64,000 nt of DNA, taken from assembly GCF_016026235.1 (NCBI RefSeq), contig NZ_CP065613.1, one strand, 5' to 3'. Numbering within the stretch: position 1 is the stretch's first letter; each line of letters begins with the position of its first letter. Under the pieces are notes generated by a model. It had not been told where the DNA came from, searched no databases, and worked only from the letters and a program-made list of their open reading frames with translations. This DNA is from Escherichia coli (GTDB lineage Bacteria; Pseudomonadota; Gammaproteobacteria; Enterobacterales; Enterobacteriaceae). The position numbers were made by a program, and so were the translations under genes. Shown piece by piece: positions 10,101 through 57,105 of the stretch.

Positions 10101-10147
10101 CCCTTACCTTTAAAGCGGATGCGATTTATTTCGCATCTTTTTTTACC

Positions 10148-10156
10148 TGAATTTAC
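10148..10156. repeat. IS1 target-site duplication, left copy (tgaatttac)
   Basis: 9-bp direct repeat immediately flanking the IS1 left inverted repeat. Confidence 0.8.
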
Positions 10157-10211
10157 GGTAATGCTGCCAACTTACTGATTTAGTGTATGATGGTGATTTT
10201 AAGGTGCTTGC

Positions 10212-10487: not shown

Positions 10488-10909
10488 CCTCGCGCATACA
10501 GCCGGGCAGTGACGTCATCGTCTGCGCTGAAATGGACGAACAGTGGGGCTACGTCGGTGCTAAATCACGTCAGCGCTGGCTGTTTTACGCGTATGACAGG
10601 ATACGGAGGACGGTTGTGGCGCACGTCTTCGGTGAACGCACTCTGGCCACACTGGAGCGTCTTCTGAGCCTGCTGTCGGCCTTTGAGGTCGTGGTATAGA
10701 TGACGGATGGCTGGCCGCTGTATGAATCACGCCTGAAGGGAAAGCTGCACGTTATCAGCAAGCGTTACACTCAGCGCATTGAGCGACATAATCTGAATCT
10801 GAGACAACATCTGGCAAGGCTGGGACGGAAGTTACTGTCGTTCTCAAAATCGGTGGAGTTGCATGACAAGGTCATCGGGCATTATCTGAACATAAAACAC
10901 TATCAGTAA
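10406..10909 (+). pseudogene. insB: IS1 insB frame interrupted by an in-frame TAG stop at 10697-10699
   Basis: The InsB frame is split into two track ORFs (10406-10699 and 10700-10909, same frame); the stop lies where canonical InsB, as I recall it, has Trp (…[10 protein letters not shown]). Confidence 0.7.
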
Positions 10910-10924
10910 GTTGGAGTCATTACC

Positions 10925-10933
10925 TGAATTTAC
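10925..10933. repeat. IS1 target-site duplication, right copy (tgaatttac)
   Basis: 9-bp direct repeat identical to 10148-10156. Confidence 0.8.
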
Positions 10934-11005
10934 TACAAAAAAAGCCACGGTATAAACCGTGGCAAAATCCAACATAGCTAAAAATAATCAGGCGAGTGGT
11001 ATGAC

Positions 11006-19077: not shown

Positions 19078-19107
19078 TGATGAGAGCATCCGGCAATCGG
19101 CGCACCA

Positions 19108-19198
19108 TGCCTGATGCGACGCTTGACGCGTCTTATCAGGCCTACAATGGGTACCGGATCGGTGTAGGCCGGATAAGGCGTTCACGCCGCATCCGGCA
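19108..19198. repeat. REP/BIME palindromic repeats
   Basis: gcctgatgcgacgct…gcgtcttatcaggcctaca and gtaggccggataaggcgttcacgccgcatccggca units between convergent ybcF and purK. Confidence 0.8.
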
Positions 19199-50967: not shown

Positions 50968-51029
50968 TTATGCAAATCAGGAGAATCTGAGGGGGGATTT
51001 CCTGCGAGGGCTGATGGCAAATACAAAAT

Positions 51030-51118
51030 TGCCTGATGCGCTACGCTTATCATGCCTACCTGAATGAATTGGCACGAACTTGTAGGCAGGATAAGGCGGT
51101 CACGCCGCATCCGGCATA
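51030..51118. repeat. REP/BIME palindromic repeats
   Basis: gcctgatgcgctacgcttatca… and gtaggcaggataaggcggtcacgccgcatccggca units between ybdG and nfsB. Confidence 0.75.
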
Positions 51119-51176
51119 AACAAAGCGCACTTTGTCAGCAATCTGAGCCGGGATGGGGTCCCGGCTGTCAGGAGAA

Positions 51177-53798: not shown

Positions 53799-54126
53799 TT
53801 ATGTTGGCGTTTTCTATTCAGTATAGAAGTCGGAGCGGCTGGGCGAGATGCGGAAGTTCTGGAATGTTTCTTTTTTTGATGATGGTGACTGAAGCAAATT
53901 GGCTACATTTTGCAATGTGACCAGTTGCGTCATAGTTGGCTGGCGGCGAAGAATTTTGACGATTGCGGCATGCAGAAAAAAACGGGTTCAGCTTCAGTTG
54001 ATTAAATGAGGAGTGAGAAGTCCGAAACAGGATTCACTGTATAAATAAACAGCCATTTTGTTGAGGAAGGGTAAGATAACGGCGGGTGCCTGAAGCTTTC
54101 CGGTTTCAGGTTTACTCTGAGGTCTG

Positions 54127-54185
54127 GAAAGATGAAGCCCCAGGAGATATTTCTATCAACCCTGGGGCTGCCACTCCAAACCAGA
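54127..54185 (-). ncRNA. sokE: Putative Sok-type antisense RNA, hok copy 1
   Basis: Placed by analogy with known hok/sok loci (antisense to the mok leader 45-100 nt upstream of hok); exact ends were not determined. Confidence 0.35.
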
Positions 54186-54229
54186 CAATTTGGATGGTAG
54201 TTCCTTCTTCGCATGGAGGCAATATAAAC

Positions 54230-54382
54230 ATGCTGACGAAATATGCCCTTGTGGCAGTCATAGTGCTGTGTTTGACGGTACTGGGATTTACGCTTCTGGT
54301 CGGAGACTCGCTGTGTGAGTTTACGGTGAAGGAACGTAATATTGAGTTCAGGGCTGTTCTCGCTTACGAACCGAAGAAGTAG
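54230..54382 (+). CDS. hokE: Hok-family type I toxin (50 aa), copy 1
   Basis: [50 protein letters not shown]; overlapped in frame by a mok-like ORF starting at GTG 54086. Confidence 0.88.
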
Positions 54383-54404
54383 CCGTTGTGCGGGGAGTAA
54401 TCCC

Positions 54405-55698
54405 CTGAGGGATCCCCAGAAAATTTAGTAAACCATTATCATATTGGTATACCGTTGCTGTAGAACTTTCAGCCCTGCGTCAAGTGACAGTGTGTTTAGT
54501 ATGAGTGGAGAATGTCGAATCACATTCTCCGCCAGTTTTAATAACGAGATGACTCGCCTGTGCTTCACTGTATTTGCCTGATATTTATGATGTATCCCTT
54601 TGTTTTCCAGGCTGAAACCGCTTAACCACATAATGATACTGGCTAATGTTGCGATCAGACTCAATACCGTGACCCGCCCGGATGAATGACTGGCACCAAA
54701 CCGTAGTCCAAATCCCCAGCGAGGATTTTTTTCATCCCTGAAATTTTGCTCAATTTGCATTCTACGGCTGTATAATTTCATTACCTGTTTTGGCGAGAAC
54801 TCAGTACTGTTTGTGAAAATAAACCATGGTGATTTCCCGGCAGTACGAGCTTTAGCCGTCACCGATGGTCTGGTTGCTCTTTCCTTCGAGCGTTTAAATC
54901 TACGACCTTTAGGCTTACTTTTATAAAGATAAAAATGCCCTTCATGTTGTGCATTTTTATCTCGACCCAGCAGGCCTTCACCTAAATAAATTGCTGTCGT
55001 TGATGCTTTTGTGCCTGAGTCCGACACCTTTTCCCAGCCATTACCAACATTGTAATAATGATTGCCCAGTACCCGGCAAATATAGGTCCAGCCACGGGAG
55101 CGGAGCTGTTGGAACCATCGCCCCTGAAAACCGGCATCTGTAATAACAATGACATCAGTCCCGGGGGAAAAGCACTCAGCAAGCGATTCCAGAAAACGCT
55201 CATGTACATCTGCATTCGCTGTCTGTGATGATGGAACGACACAACTCATCAACGGTAAAGAACGCCCGTCACATGCCAGGCTTGCCCGCAAAAGCTGAAA
55301 ACGAGAGGCATGATAAGCACTCCAGTCAATGAGTATCACAACACGAGACATTCCCCGCGTAATCTTTTGGGTAATTCGCTGAAAAATGGTGGAAACCTCA
55401 TTTTGCAAATGTCGATTCCCCAACAGTCGATCCACCCGCTTTATTTTGTTTTTAACTGATGCCGTACCGGTTAAATGACGCCCGATACTGGTAAGTGTGA
55501 GGGAAGCGCCATTTATTACAGCATTAGTTGCGTCAATCAGTGATTTTTGACGGTAAAGATGCAAAGGGGCCAGTATATTGTTAAGGAAATTTTGGCATAA
55601 TGAACGTGCAGGCATAGTGGTGATCTCCTTGAAATTGTTAGCACAATCAATTAGATCACATCTCACTATGCCTGTCTTGTTTTCTGGGGATTCCTCAG
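54405..55698 (-). mobile_element. IS4-family insertion sequence, about 1.3 kb (IS186-like by position and target, IS10-like by ends and transposase)
   Basis: Imperfect terminal inverted repeats ctgagggatccccagaaaa / ctgaggaatccccagaaaa; flanked by a roughly 10-bp direct repeat (gagtaatccc); inserted in a GGGG-N-CCCC hairpin 22 bp after the hok stop; boundaries uncertain by 1-2 nt. Confidence 0.8.
54425..55615 (-). CDS. DDE transposase, IS4 family
   Basis: 396 aa from MPARSLCQNFLNN; DDE residues (VILIDWS, VITDAGF) and the YSRRMQIEQNFRDEK signature; the 568-aa track ORF is a read-through from flanking DNA. Confidence 0.85.
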   Translation of the reverse strand: MPARSLCQNFLNNILAPLHLYRQKSLIDATNAVINGASLTLTSIGRHLTGTASVKNKIKRVDRLLGNRHLQNEVSTIFQRITQKITRGMSRVVILIDWSAYHASRFQLLRASLACDGRSLPLMSCVVPSSQTANADVHERFLESLAECFSPGTDVIVITDAGFQGRWFQQLRSRGWTYICRVLGNHYYNVGNGWEKVSDSGTKASTTAIYLGEGLLGRDKNAQHEGHFYLYKSKPKGRRFKRSKERATRPSVTAKARTAGKSPWFIFTNSTEFSPKQVMKLYSRRMQIEQNFRDEKNPRWGFGLRFGASHSSGRVTVLSLIATLASIIMWLSGFSLENKGIHHKYQANTVKHRRVISLLKLAENVIRHSPLILNTLSLDAGLKVLQQRYTNMIMVY

Positions 55699-55932
55699 GA
55701 GTAATCCCCGCATATCCGGTTGTCAGGTCAGGATGGTAAGGCACCTGCTTTACACTTTCGCCCGCGGTCAGTGATGGCTGCGGGCGATTTCGTTTTAAGA
55801 GCAATGATGAGTTTTGCCGACAGAAGTCCGAAACAGGACTCACTGTATAAATAAACAGCCATTTTGCTAAGGAAGGGTAAGATAACGGCGGGTGCCTGAA
55901 GCTTTCCGGTTTCAGGTTAACTCTGAGGTCTG

Positions 55933-55992
55933 GAAAGATGAAGCCCCAGGAGATATTTCTATCAATCCTGGGGCTGCCACTCCGAGCCTCAA
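55933..55992 (-). ncRNA. Putative Sok-type antisense RNA, hok copy 2
   Basis: Homologous position to copy 1; exact ends were not determined. Confidence 0.3.
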
Positions 55993-56036
55993 CAACTCGG
56001 ATGGTAGTCCCTTCTTCGCATGGAGGCAATATAAAC

Positions 56037-56189
56037 ATGCTGACGAAATATGCCCTTGTGGCAGTCATAGTGCTGTGTTTGACGGTGCTGGGATTTACGC
56101 TTCTGGTCGGAGAGTCGCTGTGTGAGTTCACCGTAAAGGAACGTAATATTGAGTTTAAGGCTGTTCTCGCTTACGAACCGAAGAAGTAG
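56037..56189 (+). CDS. Hok-family type I toxin (50 aa), copy 2
   Basis: [50 protein letters not shown]; intact 3' hairpin gcggggagcaatccccgc downstream. Confidence 0.85.
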
Positions 56190-56310
56190 TCGTTGTGCGG
56201 GGAGCAATCCCCGCATATCCGGTTGTCAGGTCAGAGTGGTAAGGCACCTGCTTTACACTTTCGCCCGCAGTCAGTGATGGCTGCGGGCGAATCGTACCAG
56301 ATGTTGTCAA

Positions 56311-56940
56311 TTAATCGTGTTGGCACAGAGTTATGACTATTTTTTCTTTTATCTGCCAGTGCACAGCAAACATCTCATTCTCACGATGAATGATGACCTG
56401 CTGTTTATTCCAGCTAATTATCTGATAGTCCAGAAAACCTGCATCAGTTTGGATCTCACTTGCCTTAAATGCGCTCTCTTTGGCGGAAAATGCCAGTGTC
56501 AGCGCCAGAGAAAAGGCTAAACCGCAGTCTGCGAGTCGCTCGTGTTCTGCTGGTGTAATAATGTTGTCTGCCAATTCGGTCGCTGTTTGCGCAGAAAAAA
56601 TTTCTTCGATATCAACGCCAATCGGTTGACGGGAAACCACGGCCAATGCCGTAGCCCCGCAGTGGCTAATACTGCCGTATACCTCCGCAGGCCACACCGG
56701 TTGGCGTAGCTCGCCGATTGCGGGCACACATTTATAGCCATATTCCCGCAAGGCATAAACAGCAGCGATCCGTCCGGCTAAATGCTCTGTTTTACGTTTA
56801 CGTCCAGCGTGTTGCAGTTGTGCGTAGTGCGGCAGCCAGAGTAAATCCTGCTCACAAAAATTCGCCGGATCGAACTCAACAAAATGCAGCGTATGTCCGG
56901 CAAAGGGGAGGGAGGTATGCGTAGTTTTCATATCGACCAT
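56311..56940 (-). CDS. entD: Enterobactin synthase phosphopantetheinyl transferase
   Basis: 209 aa from MVDMKTTHTSLPFAGHTLHF; the track ORF is extended upstream into the REP region. Confidence 0.88.
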   Translation of the reverse strand: MVDMKTTHTSLPFAGHTLHFVEFDPANFCEQDLLWLPHYAQLQHAGRKRKTEHLAGRIAAVYALREYGYKCVPAIGELRQPVWPAEVYGSISHCGATALAVVSRQPIGVDIEEIFSAQTATELADNIITPAEHERLADCGLAFSLALTLAFSAKESAFKASEIQTDAGFLDYQIISWNKQQVIIHRENEMFAVHWQIKEKIVITLCQHD

Positions 56941-56944
56941 ATCC

Positions 56945-57070
56945 GAGACTGATGACAAACGCAAAACTGCCTGATGCGCTACGCTTATCAGGCCTACATG
57001 GTCCTGCAATATATTGAATTGGCAAGATTTTTGTAGGCCGGATAAGGCGTTCACGCCGCATCCGGCATGA
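56945..57070. repeat. REP/BIME palindromic repeats
   Basis: ctgatgcgctacgcttatcaggcctaca and gtaggccggataaggcgttcacgccgcatccggca units between entD and fepA. Confidence 0.75.
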
Positions 57071-57105
57071 ACGACGCGCACTTTGTCAACAATCTGACGT
57101 TAGCA

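Follow-up and report, generated by a model that had tools for sequence, protein, structure and literature searches.

Three intergenic REP clusters in an Escherichia coli chromosome fall into two BIME classes

Gene context of the three sites

The DNA analysed here, called the window throughout, is a stretch of 64,000 nucleotides of an E. coli chromosome. The 901 nt round the first of its three sites of interest (site 1) match 5,425 of the 5,426 complete E. coli genomes on which all complete-genome comparisons in this work are based. The closest genome to this region is FDAARGOS_943, at 99.9% identity, whose annotation places ybcF and purK there, and the same genome is 100% identical at sites 2 and 3, where ybdG/nfsB and entD/fepA are annotated. 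An earlier note, written from the letters of the window, had used these very gene names and had placed a repeat cluster between the members of each pair. Both the names and the intergenic location agree with the RefSeq annotations of FDAARGOS_943 and K-12, and the annotated genes under the matches show that the names were right. The three spacers are as follows (strand in brackets).

Site 1, 138 nt, convergent: ybcF (+), stop codon 19075-19077; purK (-), stop codon 19216-19218.
Site 2, 257 nt, tandem: nfsB (-), stop codon 51177-51179; ybdG (-), start codon 50917-50919.
Site 3, 174 nt, tandem: fepA (-), stop codon 57106-57108; entD (-), start codon 56929-56931.

By the annotation of FDAARGOS_943 and K-12, all the REP units described below lie between genes and 3' of stop codons. 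The RefSeq copy of K-12 used here has no REP repeat_region features, and hence the units carry no official REP numbers here.

Six REP units in three inverted pairs

What kind of sequence occupies these spacers? REPs have been described as non-autonomous sequences handled by a REP-associated Y1 transposase (PMC3333891). In E. coli they are arranged as BIMEs of two classes: BIME-1 joins a z1 and a y unit through a long conserved linker (L), often with an IHF site, and occurs in single copy, while BIME-2 joins z2 and y units through a short linker (S) and forms tandem arrays in which the number of units varies among strains (PMC3333891). The REP head GCC[G/T]GATGCG and the REP tail CTTATC[A/C]GGCCTAC can be read in the window in their textbook form. 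Taking as the + strand of a unit the one that reads GCC[G/T]GATGCG...CTAC, the window contains exactly six full REP units, which form three tail-to-tail inverted pairs, each made of a Z unit on the + strand, a linker and a y unit on the - strand. The units are imperfect palindromes, 29, 34 or 37 nt long, and all six end in CTAC.

The matches lie far above chance. The tail motif CTTATCMGGCCTAC, with up to two mismatches allowed, has 6 matches where 0.42 are expected, a count that 0/100 shuffles reached, and the full 37-nt z2 pattern has 1 match against 0.00 expected. When the y, z1 and z2 consensus sequences were compared with the whole window by blastn-short, only the six units appeared at E = 1e-9 to 1e-16, aligned over their full length with 94-100% identity to the consensus; the next matches, at E >= 0.004, are sub-matches inside the same six units or noise. 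As the whole window holds only six units, the list of three clusters drawn up in the earlier note was complete, and each cluster is present within 1-25 nt of where it had been put. A formal search with REP consensus models, the test on which that note had staked its reading, came out positive at all three sites. In this way some 400 nt of otherwise unexplained intergenic sequence are accounted for, and nothing else in the window is REP-like.

How alike are the units? They had been called near-identical, which is true of the y units (34/34 positions identical between sites 1 and 3, 32/34 at site 2) and of the two z1 units (28/29 between sites 2 and 3), and untrue of the Z unit of site 1, which belongs to the longer z2 class (37 nt). 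The clusters thus fall into two BIME classes and are not of a single kind. Queries containing canonical units match E. coli genomes at a median of 38-40 or more places, the count being capped at 40 and the cap reached in most of the 5,426 genomes, as befits a dispersed repeat family. The description of the clusters as routine for E. coli fails for the nfsB-ybdG copy, since only 78 of the 5,426 complete genomes have it.

Most of the units fold well as RNA. The hairpins of y (sites 1 and 3) and of z2 are predicted at -21.3 kcal/mol each, with z-scores of -4.9 for the y unit and -7.3 for the z2 unit of site 1. The y unit of site 2 reaches -15.0 kcal/mol (z = -3.9) and the z1 unit of site 3 -11.5 kcal/mol (z = -2.9); the z1 hairpin of site 2 is weak (-4.9 kcal/mol, z = -0.45). 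Overall, four of the six units fold with z between -3.9 and -7.3. The predicted y and z2 stems carry a 1x1 internal mismatch between two stem segments, which is typical of REPs; such non-complementary bases in the stem are needed for the binding of TnpA-REP (PMC3333891).

Judged by their sequences, the three stretches belong to the REP (palindromic unit) family of E. coli and are arranged as BIMEs; nothing contradicts this identity, and no defining sequence test failed. They share with the E. coli REP/BIME system described by Ton-Hoang et al. 2012 (PMC3333891) the unit sequences, the GTAG/CTAC foot, the stem mismatch and the tail-to-tail pairing, as well as the distinction between L and S linkers, the BIME-1 flanks, the extragenic 3' location and the BIME-2 variation in unit number, and at sites 1 and 3 there is no difference from it. 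We are highly confident in the explanation as a whole, namely REP/BIME identity, with a BIME-2-type element at site 1, a BIME-1 at site 3, a decayed BIME-1 at site 2 and a local function inferred from the family. Clusters of this kind are already known biology, and the rare nfsB-ybdG allele is a minor curiosity.

Site 1 (ybcF/purK): a BIME-2-type array

The elements of site 1 are the following.

19085-19108 (-): y-head stump AGCATCCGGCAATC at 19085-19098, then a head-to-head linker up to the z2 unit.
19109-19145 (+): z2 REP unit GCCTGATGCGACGCTTGACGCGTCTTATCAGGCCTAC, 37 nt, an exact match to the pattern, starting 31 nt past the ybcF stop codon.
19146-19163: tail-to-tail linker of S type, 18 nt, AATGGGTACCGGATCGGT, read from the sequence with the class definition of PMC3333891.
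19164-19197 (-): y REP unit, 34/34 to the y consensus, ending 18 nt before the purK stop codon.

The - strand of the stump reads GCCGGATGCT, one mismatch away from the REP head, and the stretch 19085-19108 aligns to the part of the Rfam naRNA4 (REP325) model that covers the y head and the head-to-head linker. In the same model, the Z2 hairpin is the part that aligns with the long Z unit, and the first hairpin scores 40 bits on the y unit. The alignment of the Z unit to the Z2 hairpin of a REP325-derived model thus marks site 1 as BIME-2-type. The layout found over 19085-19197 is indeed that of a BIME-2: a short S linker joins z2 to y, and a further y is left as a stump. REP325/naRNA4 (RF02564) resembles the site in alternating y and z2 units and in the head-to-head linker, of which site 1 keeps an aligned remnant. 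The two differ in size, with 12 units in REP325 against two full ones and a stump at site 1, which scores 36-40 bits against a threshold of 59.5.

K-12 carries at this site an extra complete z2 unit, about 60 nt, ahead of the y stump that both strains share. At 95% identity or more, about 2,171 genomes have the junction of the window type and about 1,922 that of the K-12 type. Site 1 therefore varies in unit number among strains, with both forms common, which is the behaviour described for BIME-2. The earlier note had remarked that the repeats are possible recombination substrates, and the strain-variable unit number at ybcF/purK lends that remark some support.

Site 3 (fepA-entD): a canonical BIME-1

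Site 3 has a richer layout, with conserved sequence on both sides of the REP pair.

56949-56968: conserved flank of the BIME-1 next to z1; entD (-) has its start codon at 56929-56931.
56969-56997 (+): z1 REP unit GCCTGATGCGCTACGCTTATCAGGCCTAC, 29 nt, matching the tail motif and the consensus.
56998-57032: full L linker, 35 nt, fitting the consensus of 10 BIME-1 loci.
57033-57066 (-): y REP unit, the same as at site 1 (34/34).
57067-57097: conserved BIME-1 flank on the y side, ending 8 nt before the fepA stop codon.

With its z1 unit, L linker, y unit and conserved flanks, site 3 (56949-57097) reads as a canonical BIME-1. The element is identical in K-12 and is found together with its junctions in 5,352 of the 5,426 complete genomes; it is fixed in the population.

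Does the linker bind IHF? On its - strand (57007-57019) lies ATTCAATATATTG, which agrees with the IHF consensus WATCAANNNNTTR at 12/13 positions. As the window has about 0.9 matches of this quality per kb, the sequence alone is no proof of IHF binding at site 3; the exact consensus has no match at any of the three sites. IHF binding here would be expected from the literature on the BIME-1 family rather than from this sequence by itself. BIME-1 elements of this sort are also reportedly known by the names RIP and RIB (REP-IHF-REP; IHF-binding BIME-1), which are said to go back to Oppenheim in 1993 and to Boccard and Prentki in 1993. Compared with RIP/RIB, site 3 has the whole palindromic layout and a putative ATTCAATATATTG core in the linker, whereas site 2 is without the core.

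A side observation concerns gene calling next to this element. A mechanical ORF of 256 aa with a GTG start (56311-57081, -) extends entD upstream through the entire BIME-1; with the RefSeq start at 56931, entD has 206 aa. Automatic gene calling could mistakenly draw the REPs into entD.

Site 2 (nfsB-ybdG): a degenerate BIME-1 in a minority of genomes

The elements of site 2 and its surroundings are listed below.

50991-51010: allele-specific filler, 20 nt, - strand CCCTCGCAGGAAATCCCCCC, separating the BIME-1 from sequence shared with K-12; identity to K-12 stops at 50991.
51011-51030: conserved BIME-1 flank on the z1 side, CTGATGGCAAATACAAAATT, direct-repeat family D5, common to site 3 and kept over 10 BIME-1 loci.
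51031-51059 (+): z1 REP unit, 29 nt, with a G-to-T change beside the tail (ATCAtGCCTAC), 28/29 to the z1 of site 3.
51060-51081: shortened L linker, 22 nt, 13 nt below the canonical length by the alignment of BIME-1 loci.
51082-51115 (-): y REP unit with two changes, one of them a tail-side G-to-T on its own strand, 32/34 to the y consensus.
51116-51146: conserved flank of the BIME-1 next to y, ATAAACAAAGCGCACTTTGTCAGCAATCTGA, which belongs to direct-repeat family D3, has 91% identity to site 3 and is kept across loci.
51147-51165 (-): GC-rich hairpin GCCGGGA-loop-TCCCGGC, outside the BIME, 11 nt past the nfsB stop codon.

Sites 2 and 3 have in common more than their REPs, as the 20-30 nt on either side are shared too (repeat families D3 and D5). 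An alignment of the two sites with BIME-1 copies from eight other loci (ridA-mgtA, artJ-rlmC, yggL-yggN, dppA-dppB, mog-satP, aspC-gloC, fbaA-mscS and avtA-ysaA) displays one conserved architecture of about 150 nt. Site 2 (51011-51146) has this layout in part, with the L linker cut to 22 nt, and is best read as a decayed BIME-1. Its L linker is 13 nt shorter than that of a canonical BIME-1 and lacks the IHF motif, the IHF consensus having no match in the linker even with one mismatch allowed, and each stem carries one substitution. As the stems are weakened and the IHF motif is absent, site 2 may do little, and it may even be functionally inert. The neighbouring hairpin at 51147-51165 is missed by the terminator scan because it has no T-tract; a diverged version of it occurs in genomes without the site 2 BIME.

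How common is this element? The nfsB-ybdG spacer of K-12 is 107 nt long and without any REP. A 196-nt query over the site 2 element and its junctions is covered in 78/5,426 genomes (about 1.4%), all at 99% identity or more, and its 37-nt junction is unique to the 78 carriers, with one place in each. The empty allele is present in about 5,400 genomes. One window thus samples three population states of a BIME (fixed, copy-number-variable and rare). REP content emerges as a strain-variable layer of 3'-UTR sequence, of which the three sites give a compact illustration. The rare nfsB-ybdG allele offers a ready-made pair of filled and empty sites, that is, a natural test of BIME effects on neighbouring genes.

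History of the nfsB-ybdG allele

How did a BIME-1 come to lie between nfsB and ybdG in so few strains? On balance we think it probable that this copy records a mobility event, either the insertion of a BIME-1 here in an Escherichia lineage or the movement of about 180 nt between lineages by a very short recombination tract. Site 2 would then be a marker of REP mobility and not a conserved regulatory element. Such a reading concerns history only and is compatible with the REP/BIME explanation given above. The frequencies favour it, with an empty site in K-12 and some 5,400 genomes against near-identical filled sites in 78, and so do the flanks, which are about 99% K-12-like right up to the edge of the indel.

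A scan for NfsB among GTDB species representatives gave at least 80 loci, with no E. albertii or E. fergusonii among the matches listed. In 77 other species representatives listed, mostly of other Enterobacteriaceae genera, there is no E. coli-type REP pair downstream of nfsB, and the empty state is therefore probably ancestral; one locus of the scan (L043) has a lone REP tail motif there. Among the matches listed, two other Escherichia-type contigs are without the filled allele. Escherichia sp. MOD1-EC7003, a non-coli lineage, has the filled allele at the same site with the same 257-nt spacer.

This orthologous copy speaks against a recent event. The filled alleles of the window and of MOD1-EC7003 are 94.9% identical and the flanking genes of the two lineages 95-96%; as the element has diverged (by about 5%) to nearly the same degree as its flanking genes, it is old and no fresh transposition. 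Two more observations count against mobility. Neither the element nor its 20-nt filler has a donor elsewhere in the E. coli genomes searched, where the best other BIME-1 is about 82% identical, and the junctions have no clean target duplication: the 20-nt filler at 50991-51010 is present and the neighbouring hairpin at 51147-51165 has also diverged. In the E. coli minority, the element either came in on a short introgressed tract or was retained as an ancestral allele.

An origin of the empty allele by deletion between two TCAGATT repeats was considered and rejected. Such a deletion would remove 9 nt (TATTTCYYC) that the empty alleles keep as extra sequence.

The REPIN-RAYT system (Pseudomonas model; PMC3116915, PMC3337134) provides a useful comparison. 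Like the pairs described here, a REPIN is an inverted REP doublet able to fold as one long hairpin, and site 2 further resembles it in its presence/absence polymorphism and in a coordinated change of the two arms that preserves the long hairpin. It differs in that the window has no RAYT gene and no near-identical sister copies of the element, and so no sign of recent copying.

The NfsB scan also returned a 7.8-kb contig (PYVH01000101.1) labelled 'Marinobacter sp. B9-2', with an NfsB 100% identical to that of the window and flanks more than 99% identical to E. coli. It is almost certainly E. coli contamination of the Marinobacter assembly.

A possible long hairpin in BIME-1

The coordinated change at site 2 deserves a closer description. 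The z1 and y units carry the same tail-side G-to-T, and each change breaks a C-G pair of the unit's own stem. If z1 pairs with y as one long hairpin, the paired changes keep a T-A pair. Is this a rule of the family? In an 11-sequence BIME-1 alignment the corresponding pair of the long hairpin is GC in 8 sequences; it is UA in 2, which are one locus taken from two lineages, and UG in the remaining one, yggL-yggN. The model in which each unit forms its own stem has only breaks over the same alignment. The covariation score is 0.038, compared with 0.008 in shuffles, of which 3/500 reached 0.038. As at most two independent events underlie it, the covariation is a hint and not a result. We consider it possible, though rather unlikely, that the pairing is no coincidence and that what is maintained in a BIME-1 is, as in a REPIN, the long hairpin as a whole rather than each REP hairpin, either by selection or by hairpin-templated (quasipalindrome) correction.

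The yggL-yggN copy (L089, 401-531, strain 28RC1) is of interest in its own right. Its L linker is truncated, its z1 unit carries the G-to-T variant of site 2, and the T faces a G in the y unit, which makes a U-G pair in the RNA long hairpin.

Small-RNA genes, terminators or chance

Could the elements be independent small-RNA genes (ES036/CssrF at site 3, naRNA4-like at the y and z2 units) and not passive repeats? A whole-window Rfam scan does place ES036 (RF02751) at 56990-57031 (-), with 40.5 bits against a gathering threshold of 37.6, and it gives partial naRNA4 matches of 29-40 bits on y and z2 units. The ES036 match covers most of the site 3 L linker and the adjacent z1 tail, and the ES036 consensus simply combines the L linker of BIME-1 with the GTAGGCC tail, a sequence common to many loci. 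The family CssrF thus appears to describe the BIME-1 linker, which at site 3, together with the z1 tail, reaches threshold; site 2 has no ES036 match. Since the model amounts to the BIME-1 linker, the match re-labels the repeat and reveals no gene. Every naRNA4 match lies under the gathering threshold of 59.5 (best 40.0 bits), because each match takes in only one of the two hairpins. A search for the sigma-70 promoter consensus found none in the three spacers, so that a small-RNA gene has no promoter-like site there. A recent preprint finds no measurable role of REP325 in nucleoid compaction (bioRxiv 10.64898/2026.03.23.713779). Small-RNA genes are therefore a very improbable account of the three sites, and the ES036 call invites caution with small-RNA annotation: a match at fepA-entD is no evidence of a separate gene. 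REPs have no Rfam family of their own.

It is less credible still that the hairpins are ordinary Rho-independent terminators that happen to look alike. Stable GC-rich hairpins just 3' of stop codons would suit them, but a terminator scan of the three spacers found 0 sites, with no T/U tract after any REP hairpin. Conservation extends beyond what a stem needs, to the loops, the CTAC foot and the 20-30-nt flanks, and the sequence recurs about 40 or more times per genome. The repeat-family evidence rules terminators out as a sufficient explanation. Chance palindromes in GC-rich intergenic DNA can be dismissed. The window does have many short head motifs (25 matches to a 10-mer with 1 mismatch allowed, against 13 expected), but full-length units at E = 1e-9 to 1e-16 have zero comparable matches in shuffles.

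Proposed function

REP/BIME elements remain the preferred reading; what might they do at these three sites? That REPs are mRNA-stabilising or insulating elements and recombination substrates, as the earlier note suggested, are published views (PMC3333891; bioRxiv 10.64898/2026.03.23.713779), and the 3'-UTR positions at all three sites fit them. It is also a published view that most REPs are no Rho-independent terminators, and the lack of promoters and terminators in the spacers fits. The mechanism outlined here is that of the family, added to the family identity, hairpin potential, extragenic 3'-proximal position, high copy number and population status observed in this analysis. Elements would be spread and reshaped by a single-copy TnpA-REP/RAYT encoded outside the window and, once fixed, would have local effects. 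In the 3' end of an upstream gene's transcript, the GC-rich hairpins would hinder 3'-to-5' exonucleases, and the same hairpins could cause partial, Rho-assisted termination and curb readthrough. At site 3 this would favour fepA over entD, and at site 2 it might favour nfsB over ybdG in the 78 carrier genomes. At site 1 both convergent transcripts, ybcF and purK, would be capped. As DNA, the L linker of BIME-1 is a putative IHF site and BIME-2 a putative gyrase site.

Such effects should be expected to vary. In the literature, the effects of REPs on mRNA half-life are context-dependent and sometimes absent, and genome-wide REP expression data have a large variance with no uniform effect on half-life. 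In genome-wide data, tandem pairs are biased towards the upstream gene, and in convergent pairs both genes are associated with higher expression. A literature search gave nothing useful on a REP at fepA/entD, on ES036 or on BIME polymorphism in ECOR strains.

Other features of the window

A perfect 10-bp hairpin, GCCGGATGCGagttttCGCATCCGG, lies at 23696-23721 and starts 10 nt past a TAA stop codon. Its arm is the first 10 nt of the y REP head and it is without the GTAG/CTAC foot; it is REP-head-like and by definition not a REP.

The Rfam small RNA STnc480 matches at 10933-10999 (+) with 87 bits. It overlaps the right arm of an inverted repeat (10122-10179 and 10902-10959; 58 nt, 71% complementary).

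The region 54016-56290 holds two hok/sok-type copies on either side of an IS4/IS186-like element. The Rfam sok matches are at 54084-54238 and 55890-56045, the direct repeats are 95-96% identical and about 1.8 kb apart, and the inverted ends of the element are at 54404-54423 and 55680-55699. In FDAARGOS_943 this region has an ISEc60 transposase and hokE annotated and is 503 bp shorter, which is the spacing of repeat D4.

The interval between purK and nfsB (19216-51177) measures 31,961 bp in the window and 53,244 bp in K-12, that is, about 21.3 kb less, and contains a tRNA-Arg(TCT) gene at 32419-32495. In K-12 the prophage DLP12 sits at argU, and its size matches the shortfall of about 21.3 kb; the window strain is therefore probably without DLP12. 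In FDAARGOS_943 the same interval is about 4.5 kb longer than in the window.
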